The translations under genes were made by a program, and so were the position numbers. 22,359 nt of DNA from a phage, in the NCBI GenBank assembly GCA_026686805.1, contig GCA_026686805.1_3949.2; one strand, given 5' to 3'. The notes below the pieces were generated by a model. It saw nothing but the letters and a program-made list of their open reading frames with translations, was not told the DNA's origin and ran no database searches. This document shows positions 3,504 through 21,480 of the stretch, one piece after another. The number at the start of each line of letters is the position of its first letter. Positions within the stretch are counted from its first letter, which is position 1.

Positions 3504-5870
3504 TTAATCGTAAACTGTTGTACCTTCTGGAACACATTTTACATCAAAGCCTAAGAACTTACTCACTTCGATGGGTGACACTTTATTCCAATCTAAATGA
3601 GAAAGCAAGAAGTTTTCTTGTTTTCTTTTTGAAAGGTATTTTGTCACCTTAATGACCATACGGTCACCAGCTTTCTTAATTTTCTTGTAAAGCTTTGTAT
3701 CATTGTCAAGACAGTCTTTCAAAGTTTTCAATACACTAATAGTATAAGTGTATGCAAATGGTGCAGCAACGTATTGGATTTTACCGAACATAGCCTCTAC
3801 AGCCTCTTCATTACCTTCTAGGAAGATAGTTTTGCTAGTATCTCGTGAATAGCAATAGCCACGAGAAATCTTCCTGTTATTGAACGTAAAGTTTCTGGCA
3901 ATAATCCAACTGCTTGTAAGGTCGAGGACACCATTCATATAGATACGTGTCATATATCTGTTATGATTAATCCAATGAACATCAGTTAAGCTGTCGTTCA
4001 AGAGTTTCTCATCTACTTCAATCCAGTCTTCTGGTATCTTTTTCCAATTTGCTTTTCGGAAAACATAGACTGTCTTCCCTATAACATTAGCAACTGACTT
4101 GGCTACATCTTCTGGAGATGAGCAAAAACATTCACCATCAACTGTGTCACCAACTGCCTTAATGTAAAGCTGAGGTTCTTCAATTGTATCAAAGTCCTCT
4201 GAAACCTCTTTATAGGAAGCTACACCTTCTGCTGGAACAGCTTTCCAGAGTTTTACAACACCTCTTACAGCTTCTTTACGCTGATAGTGATGTTCCTTAT
4301 CAGACATCTTAACAATCTTTAACAAGCTTTTATCAAGTTTGTGTAGATTGATTAAATCATCTAACTCTTTTTCAGTCGAGAATACAAACACAATACCATT
4401 ATATCTGTGAAACAGACTTGACTCACTGGCGTAGTCTCGACATGCACCACGCAGAATCTGATTGCGGCCTACAGTCTTCTCAGTACCATTTTTATTGCGA
4501 CGGTCATTAATCACGAACAAAAACTGTTCAATTTGGCTTTTACGCATTGCGCCAAAGATATTGAACATACTTGCCTCTTGAGTGTAGGAAAGTGCTGTTG
4601 CACGAATCTTACTCTCTAAAGAGTTGAACTTGACATAAGCAACTGGGTTATAAAGATAATCTACTTTAGGGATATTGTTCCCGTTCCTATCAACCTTAAT
4701 ATTGCCTTTACCGTCACGTTCATAAATGACTGAGCCGTCTTCTGCGTAGATAATTCCACGACGAATGTTTAACAATTCTTCTTCCAGAGAATCAAGCTTA
4801 ACGCCTCCCCACTCTAGCTTTGGACACACAGCATTAAACATCTCTCGTGAGTTCAAACGTAGCTCAGCATAAGCCTGTGCAGCATCCATGAGTGTAGGTT
4901 GACTATTAACTTTCTTGATAACATCCTTTGTAATTGCTTCAGTTATCTTTTTGGTAGCCTCGATGATAACATTTTTTGTCGTGTCATTCATCTGCAATGC
5001 TTCACGAGAAGCTGCAATAGCAACTGAACCAATAGGCATGTAGATGTTTACAAGGTCTACGCTCCTACGGAAAAATTCTGGCAATACTTTGAAGAAGTCA
5101 TCACCAAGTAATGCTTCCATATTAACAGGGTAGGCAATGTTACCCATCACCACATTAAACTCTGTCCTGTTACCACTAGAACGCCAGCTTTGCTTATGAA
5201 TCATGGCATCATAAACACCTTCTTCACGGGCAATGACGTTCATATCTGCTAATACATCGTCGTACTCAATATTACTTTCTGGTTTTACAGTGAAGTATGA
5301 GTACACATTCCCAGCTTCTTCAAAGAACTTTGAGATACGGTGGTCAGCAACTGCCACACGTACAGCTAAACCATTAGGTTCTTTTGTTGGGTTAGTTGTC
5401 AGCTTAGTTACTTGAGGGATACCATTCTCAAGATAAACAGAGTACTTATTAACAACACCGTCAACATAGCTAGATACTGTGAATGACTGAGCAATTGCAA
5501 ATGGTGACTTTGAGCCGATACCCATTGCACCAATGTAGTCATTAGAGTCATTCTTCGTAGAAGCTCCATAGTTTAGGTACAAACTCATAACTTTATCATG
5601 AGTCAATCCAGTTCCAAAATCACGAACTTCAAAGTAAGGCTCAAAACGAGTAGGTAAATGCACATGGAACGGGATGTTCTCTTTTCCAGCTTCTTTCTGA
5701 GCATCTACTGCGTTACATGACAGTTCACGAATCACTGCCCTTTCTTTAAAGGTATACACACCAGAACTCAAAAGGCTGAACATCTCAGGTGTCATTGTAA
5801 TCTGTGCTTGAGACGTCTCTAAAGAAGTTGAACTCTTAATCACTTCTGCGTGGTCATTTACCATGCGCAT
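3504..5870 (-). CDS. rIIA: rIIA protein (788 aa) with N-terminal GHKL/Bergerat-fold ATPase-like N-box
   Basis: ATG start confirmed, with AGAGGAAAG Shine-Dalgarno. ELSCNAVDA near residue 50 fits the GHKL N-box (E-x-x-x-N-A-x-D-A). Size and position immediately upstream of rIIB fit rIIA. Confidence 0.8.
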   Translation of the reverse strand: MRMVNDHAEVIKSSTSLETSQAQITMTPEMFSLLSSGVYTFKERAVIRELSCNAVDAQKEAGKENIPFHVHLPTRFEPYFEVRDFGTGLTHDKVMSLYLNYGASTKNDSNDYIGAMGIGSKSPFAIAQSFTVSSYVDGVVNKYSVYLENGIPQVTKLTTNPTKEPNGLAVRVAVADHRISKFFEEAGNVYSYFTVKPESNIEYDDVLADMNVIAREEGVYDAMIHKQSWRSSGNRTEFNVVMGNIAYPVNMEALLGDDFFKVLPEFFRRSVDLVNIYMPIGSVAIAASREALQMNDTTKNVIIEATKKITEAITKDVIKKVNSQPTLMDAAQAYAELRLNSREMFNAVCPKLEWGGVKLDSLEEELLNIRRGIIYAEDGSVIYERDGKGNIKVDRNGNNIPKVDYLYNPVAYVKFNSLESKIRATALSYTQEASMFNIFGAMRKSQIEQFLFVINDRRNKNGTEKTVGRNQILRGACRDYASESSLFHRYNGIVFVFSTEKELDDLINLHKLDKSLLKIVKMSDKEHHYQRKEAVRGVVKLWKAVPAEGVASYKEVSEDFDTIEEPQLYIKAVGDTVDGECFCSSPEDVAKSVANVIGKTVYVFRKANWKKIPEDWIEVDEKLLNDSLTDVHWINHNRYMTRIYMNGVLDLTSSWIIARNFTFNNRKISRGYCYSRDTSKTIFLEGNEEAVEAMFGKIQYVAAPFAYTYTISVLKTLKDCLDNDTKLYKKIKKAGDRMVIKVTKYLSKRKQENFLLSHLDWNKVSPIEVSKFLGFDVKCVPEGTTVYD

Positions 5871-9165: not shown

Positions 9166-9444
9166 TCAATCAAAAGTTACGTTTGTTACTGCCATTGCAG
9201 ATTTGCATTTTGCAGGGTCTACAACGTGATAAAGTACACTACAGTTACCTGTGCTGTCTGGTACAGGCTTTACCCATTGCTGCTTTATAGTTGGCTCTCC
9301 TAAGTCTTTGTAAGAGCCATCTGTAAAGTTGTTTACCATCTCAAGTGCAATTGGTTCTGGAACATGACCACGTATCATGTACATCTCACAACCATTACCA
9401 CCTTCACTGACTAATGGTAAAATTTCCCACTTTTCTTTAGCCAT
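9166..9444 (-). CDS. Hypothetical protein (92 aa)
   Basis: ATG start confirmed. ATGGCTAA-type 8-nt overlap with the upstream gene; ends 11 nt before the PRPS-like ATG. No recognisable motif. Confidence 0.5.
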   Translation of the reverse strand: MAKEKWEILPLVSEGGNGCEMYMIRGHVPEPIALEMVNNFTDGSYKDLGEPTIKQQWVKPVPDSTGNCSVLYHVVDPAKCKSAMAVTNVTFD

Positions 9445-9952
9445 TATAAGTTGCCCTATAAACTGTCTCGAACTTCAACAGGAGAGATATTGCCAAAGCT
9501 GTATAGTTGTTGTCAAGCACGTCTGGCATATTATTTTTGATATATTTCTCTTGCTCTTCATAGGTCATCTTAGGAATACTTAGGAGGCTATCTCCTTGCT
9601 TCTGGTTATCAGCTTTAGTTTGGATAAACCAGTTCGCACAGTGATGTTCACCACCTTTTGTAACAGGTTTGTGGTGGCCTAGTGTAAATGTTTGCTTACC
9701 CGTATACCTGCAAAGATTGTTCAGTGTTGCAATGGTGTTCTTCACAACACACCATTCATACAGGTTATCTATTGTGTAGTGTGGGTAATAACGGACAAGC
9801 GCTCTTTCACGGAAGTTATCACGATTCCAAAGAACCATGTGATTAGAATTTGAAGGGTCATATTTGTGGGAGTCTATAAATTCTTGACGCTCATCAAAGC
9901 TGAGTCTTAGAACTGACATTGCAACCGAACGTTTCAGGTTTGACAGATACAT
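9437..9952 (-). CDS. Hypothetical protein (171 aa), possible HNH-like nuclease motif
   Basis: ATG start confirmed. GHHKPVTKGGEHHCANW resembles the HH...GG...N core of HNH nucleases, but the final His is not evident. First gene after the 9962..9990 terminator. Confidence 0.5.
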   Translation of the reverse strand: MYLSNLKRSVAMSVLRLSFDERQEFIDSHKYDPSNSNHMVLWNRDNFRERALVRYYPHYTIDNLYEWCVVKNTIATLNNLCRYTGKQTFTLGHHKPVTKGGEHHCANWFIQTKADNQKQGDSLLSIPKMTYEEQEKYIKNNMPDVLDNNYTALAISLLLKFETVYRATYNG

Positions 9953-11979: not shown

Positions 11980-14124
11980 TTACATAGAGACTCTATCACG
12001 AATCTCAGCGATTTTTGCATCGTTCATTCGGGATTCACCTTTAATCTTAGTCCATCCAAGATACCCACACACCCTGTTAATCACAGAGATATCATGTGAA
12101 TGGCAAACCTCGCATTCTTCAACATCAGCCTTTGGTCTGTTACCACAATGTTCACAGATTGCTAAGTCAAAGTTAAGCCCCTGATAGAAACCTTTCAACA
12201 TCCCTCTTGTGATACAACTTTTAAGTGCTGTTAAGTTTTCTGGGTTAGCTACCCTGACATACTGGATTCTCCCACCTCTACAGATATGGAAGAATGGCTC
12301 TTCTAAGTCCTGCTTCTCAAATGGTGAGATGTCTGCTGCAACATTCATATGGAAACTGTTTGTAAAGTATTCCTTATCAGAAACACCTTTGATAACGCCA
12401 AACATATCTCTGAACTGTTTTAGCTGAGTTCCGCAAAGTGATTCTGCTGGAGTACCATAGACGGCATATAAGAAGCCATCTTCATTTTTAAACTCTTCAG
12501 TTTTCATGTTGATGTATGCCAGAACATCGTATGCAAAACTACAGCTTCCAACTTCATGAAGTCGTTTACCTTCAGCAAGAACAGATAGCTCATCAAGCGC
12601 AGTAACCCCAAAAGAAGCTGTGAAGGACTTCACAATATCCCAACCAACCTTGTCAGTAGGTTTCTTAGTTCCTTTGTACAGACCACCTTGTGTGAATGCA
12701 AGAGGGTTAGAACTTGCTGGCATATTAGCAATCATTTCGTAGCGTTTCTTGTGGAAGCTGCGAATCATCTCTAGGTACTTATCAAGCTCTTTCCAGAAAT
12801 CTAAACCACTCTCTCTAGAATACTGGTAAATCATCGGTAAGTTCAAAGATACAGCACCAATGTTAGCACGACCAACATAGAACTCTTCCCCATCCTCATT
12901 AAGATATGGAGATAAGAAGGCTCTGCAACCCATCGGTGAAATTACCTTGCCAGAACGCTCAAAAGCCTCTGCTACAGCACCATGACCAGATACACTTAAG
13001 AAGTCTGGATACATTGCTTTAGAGCAACACTCAATAGCTTTACTGTACAGGTGACCTTGACAGATATTTTCATCATGTCTCTTCTGGTCATAAATATAAA
13101 CCAGTTTAGGAAATACAACAGGCTTCTTGCTCTTACCTTGTCCATTCATACGAACATCTAGGAGAGTACTTGCAATCATGTATTGTAATCGGTTGTCTTC
13201 ATTAGACATGTCTGAGTCAAGTAACCCAAATGTTAAAGTTGTGAATGCAAAATCCCCACGACTACAAGGTACAGTGTTTAGTTTCATTTCAAGTGACTGG
13301 AAACCTTGAGTTAATTCAATCTGTAACTGCTCCATGACATAATTATGGTAATGTTCTTTAGGAATACCATAAGATGTTGCTTTCTCAGCATGATAGCGTA
13401 GAGACTTCTTAGCATACGGTACAAGTACCTTGTCAATCTCTGCTAAAGTAAAGCCACCAAATTGCTGTGCAGTTGCTGAAAGAACTACGTCACCAATAAC
13501 TTGTAAGGCCGACAGCACAGACTTCGGTTCACAATATTCGATGCCAGACATTTCAAAGCCACCTTTCAGTACTTTACCAATGTCAAACAGACAACAGTTA
13601 ATACCACCAAAAATTAGGTCTCTTAAGTCATGGATGTAGATAAACCCTTTTTCAATGGCTTCAAGTTCCTCTGGTGTTAAATGGTACTGTTTAAAGATTT
13701 CTTTAGTCAGATAACCACGAATAATTGAACCTTTTGTAGAAATTAAACTGCTGTCAAAGTTAGCATTCTCTCTGTCACCTAAGAAGAGTGTATCTTTGGT
13801 CTTCTGGTAAAGTTCATCCCAATTTTGAGCAACTTCTTTACGGTAATTTCTATATGTTGAGTAAGACTCATAAATCTCGTGATTGACTTCTGCCAAAGCA
13901 CCCTCAACAATACTGTGAATATCATTTACTGAAATGAGCAAATTATTCTGTTTAGTAGATTTTACCAGAATCCTCATAAATGCTGACTCAAGAGCTTGGG
14001 TAACATCTGGTGGGAGTTCTTTATAACCAACCCTATTAGCTGACTTTGTGACTGCTGCTAAAACTTTTTTGATATCAGGTTCTTCGAGTGAGCCATTCTT
14101 TTTAATAATCTGTACTTTGTTCAT
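11980..14124 (-). CDS. nrdD: Anaerobic ribonucleoside-triphosphate reductase, class III (714 aa)
   Basis: ATG start confirmed. C-terminal glycyl-radical motif RVCGYLG, preceded by a Cys cluster (CEHCGN ... CEVCHSH). Reading frame is contiguous, so no intron is evident. Confidence 0.9.
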   Translation of the reverse strand: MNKVQIIKKNGSLEEPDIKKVLAAVTKSANRVGYKELPPDVTQALESAFMRILVKSTKQNNLLISVNDIHSIVEGALAEVNHEIYESYSTYRNYRKEVAQNWDELYQKTKDTLFLGDRENANFDSSLISTKGSIIRGYLTKEIFKQYHLTPEELEAIEKGFIYIHDLRDLIFGGINCCLFDIGKVLKGGFEMSGIEYCEPKSVLSALQVIGDVVLSATAQQFGGFTLAEIDKVLVPYAKKSLRYHAEKATSYGIPKEHYHNYVMEQLQIELTQGFQSLEMKLNTVPCSRGDFAFTTLTFGLLDSDMSNEDNRLQYMIASTLLDVRMNGQGKSKKPVVFPKLVYIYDQKRHDENICQGHLYSKAIECCSKAMYPDFLSVSGHGAVAEAFERSGKVISPMGCRAFLSPYLNEDGEEFYVGRANIGAVSLNLPMIYQYSRESGLDFWKELDKYLEMIRSFHKKRYEMIANMPASSNPLAFTQGGLYKGTKKPTDKVGWDIVKSFTASFGVTALDELSVLAEGKRLHEVGSCSFAYDVLAYINMKTEEFKNEDGFLYAVYGTPAESLCGTQLKQFRDMFGVIKGVSDKEYFTNSFHMNVAADISPFEKQDLEEPFFHICRGGRIQYVRVANPENLTALKSCITRGMLKGFYQGLNFDLAICEHCGNRPKADVEECEVCHSHDISVINRVCGYLGWTKIKGESRMNDAKIAEIRDRVSM

Positions 14125-18246: not shown

Positions 18247-18271
18247 ATGAAAAGAGCCTCCGAAGAGGCTC
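18247..18271 (-). terminator. Intrinsic terminator hairpin with UUCG tetraloop (minus RNA GAGCCUC-UUCG-GAGGCUC followed by UUUUCAUCU)
   Basis: Plus 18254-18271 is gagcctc-cgaa-gaggctc, preceded on plus by an A-run. Lies between the 110-aa gene and the nrdA start. Confidence 0.6.
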
Positions 18272-18277
18272 CGTAGT

Positions 18278-18926: not shown

Positions 18927-19662
18927 TATAACCAACCCCTTTTAACCAGCACTTCAGGTTATTAGCATCATAATTCAGTTTCGGGTATGAGGTTACATGG
19001 AACTGCTCACCATCATAGTAGACAATATCTGCAATCCATAGTCCATTCTCTTTACAGAAATCTTTATCTGCTTTAGAGGTAATTGGATTAACTTCTACAA
19101 AACCATCTACACCCAAATCCTTTAAGCTACCTACAATACCTTTGCAGATAACGCATGTGTCAGATACTACCACAAAAAGTTCTTGGCTTTCAAGCTCTAC
19201 AATGTATTCACCAAGCTGCACTTTAGGGAGATTAGACTGTTTCATAATCTTCCCATCAGCTTCACGAACAATCGCATACCACTCTTTACCATCAACTACT
19301 GACATTCTAATAATACACTCTTGACCAGTGCGCTTTTCAATGTCTGCAAGACGTTTTAAAGCTTCTTCATAGTTATCTGTGTACTTCAGGTCATTATTAT
19401 GGCAAACAGCTTCCATAGCACCATTATGGTCATGTTGTGACAGATAAATCAAACCGTCAAGAACATATTGCAAATCTGCCTGAGCATCCAGTGTCTCAAT
19501 GGGGTCTTTCTCTTCAATTGCTTTTACAAGCTCTTTTGCTTCTTCAAGCATACATAGAGATTGAGATTTCAAAGATTCCCAATACTCATCACTGTAAGGT
19601 TGCTTTTGAGTTTTTCCACAACGAAGATTCCAGTTTTTTACTGATTCTCTTGAGTTAAACAT
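18907..19662 (-). CDS. MazG-like nucleotide pyrophosphohydrolase domain protein with C-terminal CxxC (thioredoxin-fold-like) extension, 251 aa
   Basis: ATG start confirmed, with AAGGAG 5 nt upstream. N-terminal half has MazG/HisE-like acidic helix motifs (LEEAKELVKAIEE ... DAQADLQYVLDGLIYL). C-terminal half has FVVVSDTCVICKGIVGSL, a redoxin-like CxxC after a beta-strand. Confidence 0.45.
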   Translation of the reverse strand: MFNSRESVKNWNLRCGKTQKQPYSDEYWESLKSQSLCMLEEAKELVKAIEEKDPIETLDAQADLQYVLDGLIYLSQHDHNGAMEAVCHNNDLKYTDNYEEALKRLADIEKRTGQECIIRMSVVDGKEWYAIVREADGKIMKQSNLPKVQLGEYIVELESQELFVVVSDTCVICKGIVGSLKDLGVDGFVEVNPITSKADKDFCKENGLWIADIVYYDGEQFHVTSYPKLNYDANNLKCWLKGVGYNGFTEH

Positions 19663-19886
19663 TCGGACTCCTTAAAATATCTGTTAACCTTTAGCTCTCG
19701 CGTTTCAATATATTCCAGATGCTCACGTAGCTCTTGACGTTTAAGCATTAGGTGCTGCATTTGAGATTCAACAGCTTCAACCTCTTTAATTATTGACTCT
19801 CTGGCATTTGCAAGAATGCGCTCAAGTTCTTCAATCTTGCTGTCAACTTTTGCTACATGACTCACAGCTTTACTTTTGTTAAACAT
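19638..19886 (-). CDS. Small coiled-coil protein (82 aa from ATG)
   Basis: Track start at 19901 is a TTG; ATG at 19886 (MFNKSKAV...). Sequence is rich in E/K/R/L heptad-like repeats. Confidence 0.45.
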   Translation of the reverse strand: MFNKSKAVSHVAKVDSKIEELERILANARESIIKEVEAVESQMQHLMLKRQELREHLEYIETRELKVNRYFKESECLTQENQ

Positions 19887-19907
19887 TTTATTCTCTCTCA
19901 ATAGTTA

Positions 19908-20405
19908 TTAAGCACAATTTGCTTTCATTACCTTATGGATTCTTTTTTCAGCATCTTCATAAGTTTCTTTAGTAATAAACTTAATTGCTGCAATATTGGC
20001 ATTGTAGAAGAGTCTGAGCTTCGAGTCAATCCTTTTTGTCATTACATCGAATTTATGTTGAAGGTTTGCTTCACCATAGACTAGGCCACCTTTTGTGTAG
20101 TAGGTTTGAATAATGTAAAAGTCAAAAAATTCTTTTCCAAAGCTCTCAATATCTTTTTTAATATACTCAGAAGAAGTCTCGTAAGTCATCCAATCACTTT
20201 CCTTAGTGACTACCTTCTTCCGAGTCTTACCAGCAACTTTTCTTTTGGTCACACTGTTAAGCTGTTTCTTTCCGATATAATATTGTCCAGTCTTCTTACA
20301 GTGTACTAAATAGACAAAGCCAAAATGTTTAGTGGGGTCAACTTCCCCACATAAAGATACCCAATGACCATAGGTGGGGCAATTGCCAAATCCTTTAATC
20401 TTCAT
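19908..20405 (-). CDS. GIY-YIG-like nuclease domain protein (165 aa)
   Basis: ATG start confirmed. FGFVYLVHCKKTGQYYIGKK matches the GIY-(x10-11)-YIG architecture; downstream basic stretch and conserved Glu/Asn candidates. Too short for a typical Seg-type homing endonuclease with DNA-binding domain. Confidence 0.45.
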   Translation of the reverse strand: MKIKGFGNCPTYGHWVSLCGEVDPTKHFGFVYLVHCKKTGQYYIGKKQLNSVTKRKVAGKTRKKVVTKESDWMTYETSSEYIKKDIESFGKEFFDFYIIQTYYTKGGLVYGEANLQHKFDVMTKRIDSKLRLFYNANIAAIKFITKETYEDAEKRIHKVMKANCA

Positions 20406-21435
20406 TCATACACGGCTCCCAATTATATTTCTTGAAAGAGAAATTATCTTTTGGATTTCTCTCTTGATATGCTATCCAGAAATGCTGTTCCATTAACTCT
20501 AACGGTGTCTTTGTAACAGTCTGTCCATCCCATGACACATAGGTATAAGAGTCTTTTTTAGCATAGAGTTCATAGATAGCGTCAAGACACTCTTTATAGG
20601 TCTCTTTACCATCTAAAGCATTCATCACAGCTACTTTTCCAGCACCTTTAAGGCCGAAGTAGTTGTCTGCATTATCTCCAGCAACAGCCTGATAGCACAA
20701 GAATTTAAAACCTACACCAACTGTTTTTGCAGCTTTTGGTTTTGACTTGATAGGGCAATCCCAGATATCACCAACATTATTGTCAGCAATAAAGATTAGT
20801 GGTGATTTTTCATAAGTCATATCAATACAATAAGTCCCTTCAGCTTGTCGAAGGTCTTTGTCAATACTCATAAGAGCAGCTTTCTTACCCATCTTTTCAG
20901 CTTTAGCGATTACGATTGAATCGGCTTCGAAGCCACCCTTTAAAAGTTTGAACTCTGGTCTTGACAGAAGATACTCACGACAAGCAACTAAGTGTGTTGG
21001 TGTGACAGCATCTTTACGGTTACCTTGATATTGGTGCTCAAGACCTTTAATGTCTTTATGTTTATGTACACCCTTCTCTGTTAAATAACCTACCCAAGTT
21101 CTTTCTTTACCAACAACCTTAAGCCATTCCTGAAGCACCTGTTGAGTAGCCATGATAGCTTCTTTTTCACTCTTGGCTTCTTTCCAAGTTTGTCTTTCCC
21201 ATTCATCTTCATCAAATGTCAGGCCAAGCTCTTCCACGAGGATTCTCTGGTCTGCTAACCATCTTGCAGCATCTTTTGCATTATCAAATGGTTCAGACTC
21301 TTCTGCTGTGAGTTTATTGATATATTTATATTTTGCTTTCTCAACTACACAAGCACCTTTATAGGCAATACTATCGGAGTCAATAAAGACATGTGTAACT
21401 GAATCTGGAAGTTTTGTTAGCGTATACTGCTCCAT
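20395..21435 (-). CDS. RNase H / 5'-3' flap exonuclease family protein (T4 rnh-like), 346 aa
   Basis: ATG start confirmed, with GGAGAG Shine-Dalgarno. HVFIDSDSIAYKG near the N-terminus and EADSIVIAKAE...ALMSIDKDLRQ resemble the acidic metal-site motifs I recall from T4 RNase H (EADDHIAVL...ISSDGDFTQ). Confidence 0.5.
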   Translation of the reverse strand: MEQYTLTKLPDSVTHVFIDSDSIAYKGACVVEKAKYKYINKLTAEESEPFDNAKDAARWLADQRILVEELGLTFDEDEWERQTWKEAKSEKEAIMATQQVLQEWLKVVGKERTWVGYLTEKGVHKHKDIKGLEHQYQGNRKDAVTPTHLVACREYLLSRPEFKLLKGGFEADSIVIAKAEKMGKKAALMSIDKDLRQAEGTYCIDMTYEKSPLIFIADNNVGDIWDCPIKSKPKAAKTVGVGFKFLCYQAVAGDNADNYFGLKGAGKVAVMNALDGKETYKECLDAIYELYAKKDSYTYVSWDGQTVTKTPLELMEQHFWIAYQERNPKDNFSFKKYNWEPCMNED

Positions 21436-21453
21436 TATGACTCTCCATATGAA

Positions 21454-21480
21454 AAAGCCCCATACTAAGTACAGGGCTTT
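21454..21480 (-). terminator. Weak terminator-like hairpin (minus RNA AAAGCCC-13 nt loop-GGGCUUU followed by UU)
   Basis: Plus 21454-21480 is aaagccc-catactaagtaca-gggcttt. Large loop and short GC stem. Lies between the acidic-tail gene and the RNase H-like gene. Confidence 0.35.

Follow-up and report, generated by a model that had tools for sequence, protein, structure and literature searches.

The window analysed here, meaning the whole stretch of 22,359 nt (contig GCA_026686805.1_3949.2 of the NCBI GenBank assembly GCA_026686805.1), carries at positions 19908..20405, stop codon included, on its minus strand, a gene for a 165-aa protein whose identity as a GIY-YIG nuclease domain standing alone is supported by profile matches, invariant residues and a predicted fold. 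It is part of the fixed core of the Ounavirinae, is inherited vertically within their operon for replication and nucleotide metabolism, and is under strong purifying selection. The reading that we favour, and hold to be reasonably probable, is that of a domesticated SegE-type GIY-YIG domain that acts as an endonuclease of low specificity, probably together with the 5'-3' exonuclease encoded just upstream. The source of the window is a Felixounavirus (Felix O1-like), the region being about 97% identical to many Felixounavirus genomes, and the protein is 100% identical to gp57 (bas63_0057) of the E. coli phage Bas63. Sequence 92–97% identical to this Felixounavirus region is also found in GU169904 Staphylococcus phage SA1, in Campylobacter phage A126 and, partially, in Methanobrevibacter gottschalkii; these records are ascribed to unrelated hosts and are probably contaminated or chimeric assemblies.

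The ORF call runs from an ATG start to a TAA stop, and all the features described below lie, like the gene itself, on the minus strand. A Shine-Dalgarno sequence, GGGAG, can be read directly 10 nt upstream of the ATG (20416..20420), inside the 3' end of the exonuclease gene, and the end of the exonuclease ORF, which terminates in CMNED and a stop codon, overlaps the start of the GIY-YIG ORF by 11 nt (20395..20405), an arrangement of the translational-coupling kind. This upstream neighbour (20395..21435), the proposed functional partner, is a 346-aa 5'-3' exonuclease that is annotated in relatives as exodeoxyribonuclease, gene 6 or RNaseH. The junction between the two genes stays tight in other lineages, with an 11-nt overlap in Mooglevirus, an 8-nt overlap in Erwinia phage Prophecy and a 2-nt gap in Hafnia phage Zyzzx. 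On the other side, 6 nt separate the GIY-YIG stop from the next ORF, of 87 aa.

The transcription unit appears to be delimited by two terminator-like hairpins, and a terminator is annotated at the place of each in phage Michonne. One (18253..18272, found by a scan) closes the unit formed by the exonuclease, the GIY-YIG gene, the 87-aa ORF, a MazG-like gene and two small ORFs, just before nrdA. The other, AAAGCCC…GGGCTTT followed by a T-run (21451..21480), lies between a gene for a 285-aa protein and the exonuclease gene, and was read by eye, its loop exceeding the length that the scan allows. Between the exonuclease and GIY-YIG genes neither a promoter nor a terminator was found, and promoter-like sites that could give the GIY-YIG gene a promoter of its own are no commoner than in shuffled sequence. 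The downstream 87-aa ORF (19638..19901) has weak coiled-coil-like Pfam matches and evolves fast, with a dN/dS of 0.48 against tootiki and 43% identity in Mooglevirus; its ortholog is undetectable by sequence in Erwinia and Hafnia phages, yet the slot is always filled by a small ORF.

Regarding the family, the protein matches the Pfam profile PF19835 (SegE_GIY-YIG) with an E-value of 9.4e-28 and 97.4 bits against a cutoff of 25, over profile positions 10–123 of 123, and PHROG 447, a 148-position family of compact phage proteins, with an E-value of 4e-48. The ORF is real and the family match is well beyond chance, so that the HMM search put forward in the initial annotation as a check bears out its assignment to the GIY-YIG nucleases. 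An exhaustive profile search returned 2,266 homolog clusters (50% identity) at E<=1e-3, and the counts of conservation, domains and lengths that follow refer to the best 150 of these. All 150 match PF19835 and carry the domain at the N-terminus; 68 are of at most 200 aa and 82 of 220–393 aa. The extra modules found in the long homologs are NUMOD3 (n=32), I-HmuI NUMOD-like (n=5), NUMOD1 (n=2) and several HTH, about half of the relatives in this set carry added NUMOD3 or HTH DNA-binding tails, and the long PF19835 members are, judging by their sequences, classical modular homing endonucleases. In the 165-aa protein the conserved domain occupies residues ~8–146, the NUMOD3 and HTH modules of the long relatives start beyond it, and 19 residues remain; no NUMOD or HTH was detected in it by Pfam at E<=10. 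The earlier remark that the protein is too small for the DNA-binding domain of Seg-type homing endonucleases is therefore correct.

The fold is predicted with high scores. An AlphaFold2 model built from the 150-sequence alignment (pLDDT 94.7, pTM 0.85) has the GIY-YIG fold, an alpha/beta arrangement with a three-stranded sheet in the predicted structure, and gives no sign of the different fold that the initial annotation had considered; it replaces an earlier run with 12 close homologs, in which the pLDDT was below 50 over the region of the Glu and Asn residues. A sequence search of the PDB gave no match, and a search of NCBIfam gave only a sub-threshold match, to a group I intron endonuclease model. 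Both the fold and the family are already catalogued (PF19835; UniProt, as "SegE-like GIY-YIG domain-containing protein"), and nothing about the protein is categorically new in this respect.

Five hallmarks define the GIY-YIG superfamily (PMC1564403): the GIY and YIG motifs, a central Arg, a Glu and an Asn, the last of these in the UvrC/homing-endonuclease lineage. The 165-aa protein has four of them unambiguously, namely GIY, YIG, Glu and Asn. The first two lie in the peptide FGFVYLVHCKKTGQYYIGKK (residues 28–47), which contains the "GIY" motif G29-F30-V31-Y32 (20310..20321), with G29, F30 and Y32 conserved in at least 90% of the 150 homologs, and the "YIG" motif with its basic pair, Y43-I44-G45-K46-K47 (20265..20279), in which Y43, G45 and K47 never vary and only K or R occurs at position 46. 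The spacing from Y32 to Y43 is of 11 positions, equal to that from Y6 to Y17 in I-TevI, and together with the PF19835 match it confirms the core spacing that had been noticed at the outset. These motifs are followed by W72-x-x-Y75-x-x-S78-S79 (20169..20192), with W72, Y75 and S78 invariant, which aligns with "Y-L-G-S-G" of T4 SegE and "H-S-S" of I-TevI; by E112 (20070..20072), the candidate catalytic, metal-binding Glu, which is invariant (150/150) and sits on helix 105–118; and by N135 (20001..20003), the invariant Asn of "YYN" and the counterpart of the C-terminal Asn in the UvrC/homing-endonuclease lineage. In all, Y43, G45, K47, W72, Y75, S78, E112 and N135 are invariant across the short and long classes of the 150 homologs, W15, G29, F30, Y32, I86, G90, F94, F96, V121 and Y134 are conserved in more than 90%, and the 165-aa protein has every one of them.

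The fifth hallmark is a different matter. The counterpart of I-TevI R27 is R62 in one profile alignment and V52 in another, so that the alignments disagree, and position 62 is R or N across the family, which leaves the canonical Arg without an invariant counterpart. The conserved basic residues that are candidates for its role are the invariant basic pair K46/K47 and K/R105. In a deep-profile alignment T4 SegE likewise has no Arg at the position of I-TevI R27. T4 SegE is said to have been found experimentally, by Kadyrov et al. in 1997, to be an active site-specific endonuclease. Since this active enzyme also does without the Arg, its lack seems to be characteristic of the subfamily rather than the mark of an inactive protein. 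The alignment of the catalytic Arg, Glu and Asn suggested earlier thus places the Glu and Asn firmly and does not place the Arg; the absence of Arg or Glu, named there as grounds for refutation, therefore applies to the Arg alone, and only formally.

A second feature of the family lies between the YIG and W72 motifs, where the model and the alignment both have a very basic, family-specific beta-hairpin insert at residues 48–69 (20199..20264), with strands at 50–56 and 63–69. The net charge of residues 46–69 is +9 and is the same in short and long forms, and the hairpin is absent from T4 SegE and I-TevI, SegE lacking a 19-residue insert in the deep-profile alignment. The pI of the whole protein is 9.5. 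Compared with long-form domains, those of the short form are somewhat more basic (+9.4 versus +7.4, in samples that are not independent). As modelled, the hairpin may well contact DNA. At the other end of the protein, a C-terminal helix (residues 150–164; 19914..19958) occupies the position of the first NUMOD3 repeat of the long relatives. That this helix might be a vestigial NUMOD3 was considered and rejected, as an independent NUMOD3-repeat HMM scored it at -1.0 and 651 of 1000 shuffles did equally well or better.

The distribution of the gene is that of a core gene. A tblastn search found it in 253 phage records with at least 80% identity and in 44 with 60–80%, next to 257 and 47 records for the neighbouring exonuclease; it is thus present in ~297 of 304 exonuclease-carrying phage records, a co-occurrence of ~98%. 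Four lineages (Felixounavirus, Mooglevirus, a Hafnia phage and Erwinia phages) share the same order of genes: primase/helicase, 285-aa protein, exonuclease, GIY-YIG, small ORF, MazG-like and nrdA. Three comparisons gave dN/dS values of 0.041, 0.075 and 0.033 for the GIY-YIG gene, while those of the exonuclease are 0.02–0.08 and those of NrdA 0.005–0.057. Against an Erwinia phage its dN, 0.308, is the lowest in the cluster, and its product retains 62% amino-acid identity to those of Erwinia phages, compared with 56% for NrdA, 54% for the exonuclease and 37% for MazG. Because of this near-universal presence, the constant position, the overlap with the exonuclease gene and the low dN/dS, we regard the gene as part of the core and as neither mobile nor decaying. 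The insertion polymorphism across related phages that the initial annotation had proposed to look for was not seen for this gene in these records, and its suggestion of a degenerate homing endonuclease gives way to that of a domesticated one, which fits better a gene with dN/dS of 0.03–0.08 that is among the best conserved of its cluster. One record stands apart: in phage EC6 (BFVD entries K4IC63 and K4I3J2) the annotation splits the ortholog into two ORFs, one of 87 aa and 90% identity and one of 91 aa and 96% identity, owing to a frameshift or a sequencing error.

Mobile genes do occur around the locus. An HNH_3+AP2 homing-endonuclease gene sits exactly at the exonuclease/GIY-YIG junction in FelixO1 (3996–4520 of its locus) and in ~40 other records, and its occurrence is sporadic; a different HNH lineage, 53% identical, is found at the same junction in other phages, bumzen among them. 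The dS of FelixO1 against the source stretch is raised near the HNH insertion (0.73 for the exonuclease and 0.41 for the GIY-YIG gene, next to 0.13–0.24 in the flanks), and these values look like a co-conversion tract. Elsewhere in the window nrdD (11980..14124) is one uninterrupted ORF of 714 aa, as in tootiki; that of Bas63 is annotated as two joined pieces with a homing-endonuclease gene inside (21631–24517 of its locus), another insertion polymorphism in the same cluster. In the distant Nitrincola phage 1M3-16, whose exonuclease is 30% identical, a 144-aa NADAR-domain protein (E 2e-20) is encoded directly after the exonuclease (4520–4954), followed by an HNH endonuclease and a MazG-like gene.

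The ancestry of the domain can be followed to some extent within the family. In a neighbour-joining tree, which carries no support values, the 12 Ounavirinae-type proteins group in a clade without any long form, and the sister of this clade is a protein of 267 aa that carries NUMOD3. The short and long states change 39 times on this tree, against a mean of 54 and a minimum of 44 in shuffled data. This is only suggestive, but it would fit a DNA-binding tail that has been lost or gained several times, the Ounavirinae lineage being stably without one. Short-form homologs are also present in most records of T4-like cyanophages, namely in 327 of 377 Synechococcus-phage records with NrdB, and they sit downstream of nrdA-nrdB.

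From these data a mode of action can be outlined. The protein would have a common ancestry, within one family, with the modular Seg-like phage homing endonucleases, the DNA-recognition module being absent from it. It would be an active DNA endonuclease of low sequence specificity, whose affinity for DNA would come from the built-in basic hairpin (residues 48–69) and from its overall charge, and the nicks or breaks that it makes would then be enlarged by the co-translated 5'-3' exonuclease. The purpose would be either the breakdown of DNA to nucleotides for the adjacent MazG/Nrd pathway, or the processing of replication or recombination intermediates. For the partnership with the exonuclease, which we infer, the evidence is of one kind only, namely the adjacency and overlap of the two genes; the NADAR protein in the same slot of the Nitrincola phage counts against it, and so does the HNH gene that parts the two genes in ~40 Felixounaviruses with no apparent harm. 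Moreover, a non-specific nuclease would threaten the phage's own DNA, which in Felix O1-like phages we take to be unmodified, and some mechanism of discrimination is therefore needed; we know of no mark that distinguishes self from non-self DNA in these phages.

A broader proposal, which is tentative and to our mind rather unlikely, brings the cyanophages in. According to it, a domesticated nuclease that has shed its tail would serve in two unrelated groups, the Ounavirinae and the T4-like cyanophages, as the endonuclease, so far missing, that starts the breakdown or processing of DNA; it would be a non-orthologous counterpart of EndoII and T7 gp3, would act with a 5'-3' exonuclease and would tell its substrate apart by something other than DNA modification. 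Should the protein prove to initiate the breakdown of host DNA, or to be a nuclease for processing, a step that is so far unassigned would be accounted for in the biology of marine cyanophages and of a phage genus with therapeutic uses. The gene is a clean candidate for a domesticated nuclease of a selfish element, and one that is directly testable, as gene 57 of Bas63 is identical and a knockout platform exists for this phage.

The data available for Bas63 bear on one of the rival explanations. The text on the Bas63 essentiality screen does not take up gene 57, and where it deals with 12 defence strains it names this gene neither as a counter nor as a trigger. The PhageMaP preprint describes gp77 of Bas63 as a "GIY-YIG" anti-retron protein that counters retron Ec67. 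This description was followed up as a functional lead for the present gene and set aside: paper numbers equal locus tags, the present gene is gp57, and gp77 is a separate gene with no similarity to it. The ortholog of gene 77 in the window, a 171-aa ORF (9437..9952), has no Pfam match at E<=0.01, matches PHROG 3500 (unknown function) and shows weak similarities to HNH endonucleases (E 2.6e-6) and to endonuclease VII (E 0.04), so that its description as GIY-YIG may be mistaken.

Among the alternatives, the one closest to the preferred reading, and in fact a sub-case of it, is that the protein is a functional analogue of T4 endonuclease II and T7 gp3, which would start the breakdown of the host chromosome, leaving a T7-gp6-like exonuclease to finish it and the nucleotides to feed phage DNA synthesis. 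We consider it unlikely. The position of the cyanophage short homologs downstream of nrdA-nrdB speaks for it, as T4 denA follows nrdB, although nrd neighbourhoods are also typical of homing endonucleases; further support comes from a tblastn search with DenA, in which neither Felixounaviruses nor cyanophages were among the organism groups returned and homologs appeared only in T4-like phages of enterobacteria and Aeromonas. Homology to DenA itself does not go beyond the superfamily level (hhalign probability 0.3–0.5%, no detectable sequence relationship), so that the earlier comparison with a stand-alone nuclease like T4 endonuclease II holds for the domain-only architecture and fails for descent. 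Furthermore, EndoII depends on the modification of phage DNA for self-protection, T4 DNA carrying hydroxymethylcytosine, and to our knowledge Felix O1-like phages have no such mark. The Felix O1 and Felixounavirus literature yielded no functional data on the gene or on any ortholog, and no report of host-DNA degradation. A role against host defences or competitors, in which the nuclease would destroy either an immune nucleic acid of the host (retron msDNA, for instance) or DNA that belongs to competing elements, appears more doubtful still and is in our judgement improbable. Nucleases of the homing-endonuclease type have been domesticated by phages for conflict, of which the title of PMC8263062 gives an example, another small nuclease-like gene of Bas63 (g77) is the one reported in the preprint to counter the retron, and the post-exonuclease slot of the Nitrincola phage holds a NADAR protein, a domain linked with the reversal of DNA ADP-ribosylation and so possibly with anti-defence; all three count for this role. 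Against it stand the place of gene 57 outside the counters and triggers discussed for Bas63, the lack of a match in a PADLOC search with the 165-aa protein, and the fact that genes of this kind are usually variable and not the slowest-evolving of a replication operon.

The remaining alternatives fare worse. A free-standing homing endonuclease that is still selfish, cutting a specific site in related phages that lack the gene, would agree with the modular Seg-like homing endonucleases among the closest relatives (including the tree sister), with the abundance of homing endonucleases in Felix O1-like genomes and with the name "GIY-YIG homing endonuclease" given in several genome records. It is nevertheless very improbable: the DNA-binding domain is absent, no empty sites were seen among the exonuclease-carrying records, the gene has no promoter of its own and starts within the exonuclease gene, its order is constant across genera whose exonucleases share only 54% identity, and selection on it is as strong as on replication enzymes, whereas the HNH gene at the neighbouring junction, which is truly mobile, occurs only sporadically. 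That the gene is what remains, inactive and in decay, of a homing endonuclease deprived of its C-terminal half is less probable again, to the point of being hardly credible; the domain-only architecture, the frequent interchange of short and long forms on the tree and the split ORF of phage EC6 could be taken in its favour, but the low dN/dS, the retention of all family-invariant residues and a conservation that, against Erwinia phages, exceeds those of the exonuclease and NrdA contradict it. Finally, the gene goes under three names in public records, "NAD synthetase", "GIY-YIG homing endonuclease" and "hypothetical protein". An actual NAD synthetase has next to no chance of being the product, as the label itself, in PHROG 447, in RefSeq FelixO1 and in many Felixounavirus and cyanophage GenBank/RefSeq records, is its sole support; neither Pfam nor NCBIfam finds a NAD-synthase or ATP-pyrophosphatase domain at E<=10, the only Pfam match being SegE_GIY-YIG, the fold is GIY-YIG, and the Michonne record, so named, itself carries the note "contains GIY-YIG domain". 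The name is thus refuted at the level of domain and fold, and it is unsupported and should be replaced wherever it stands, in RefSeq, in PHROGs and in the hundreds of genomes of Felix O1-like phages and cyanophages. To call the members of this ortholog group homing endonucleases misleads as well, since the gene is a fixed and strongly selected core gene with no targeting domain.

Returning to the preferred reading, that of a domesticated SegE-type domain, we can compare the protein with the GIY-YIG nucleases already known. T4 endonuclease II (DenA, PDB 2WSH), whose role is described in PMC1564403, matches PF01541 only, a Pfam family other than that of the 165-aa protein. The GIY-YIG type IV restriction enzyme PD-T4-3/CMoRE (PDB 9U75) differs in belonging to bacterial defence, in its C-terminal 5hmC-sensing domain, in its tetrameric state and in its conserved catalytic Arg. 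The catalytic domain of I-TevI (PDB 1LN0) is 15% identical and has helix alpha-1, with R27 and H31, where the PF19835 family has the beta-hairpin; moreover, I-TevI is intron-encoded and tethered to a DNA-binding region made of a zinc finger, NUMOD3 and HTH. BLASTP and single-sequence hhalign against T4 SegE, DenA and I-TevI were uninformative, and the link to SegE is seen only with a deep profile, which finds T4 SegE with 96% probability (hhalign, E 1.6e-9) and the common pattern YIGK…Y-x-G-S-G…E…YYN.

Within PF19835 the likeness is closer. For T4 SegE and SegD the match to the profile is confined to its C-terminal half, and they have no beta-hairpin. In the long class, that of the modular Seg-like homing endonucleases, the catalytic domain is homologous to the 165-aa protein and shares its invariant residues, but these proteins carry a C-terminal DNA-binding region of 100–230 aa and are sporadic mobile genes, neither of which holds for the protein described here. 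The short SegE-type proteins of cyanophages ACG-2014f and Syn9 (146–155 aa) match the full profile with 176–180 bits, compared with 36 bits over half of it for T4 SegE, and since they outscore it so far, PF19835 is named after an atypical member. The nearest counterparts in architecture are these short forms, represented by cyanophage Syn9 gp202 (155 aa), ACG-2014f gp209, a 134-aa protein of Stenotrophomonas phage IME-SM1, whose gene lies among structural genes, and a protein of Pectobacterium phage Arno18; they are 30–49% identical to the 165-aa protein and have, as it does, a full-length domain with an N-terminal G-H-W and the basic hairpin, and no tail.
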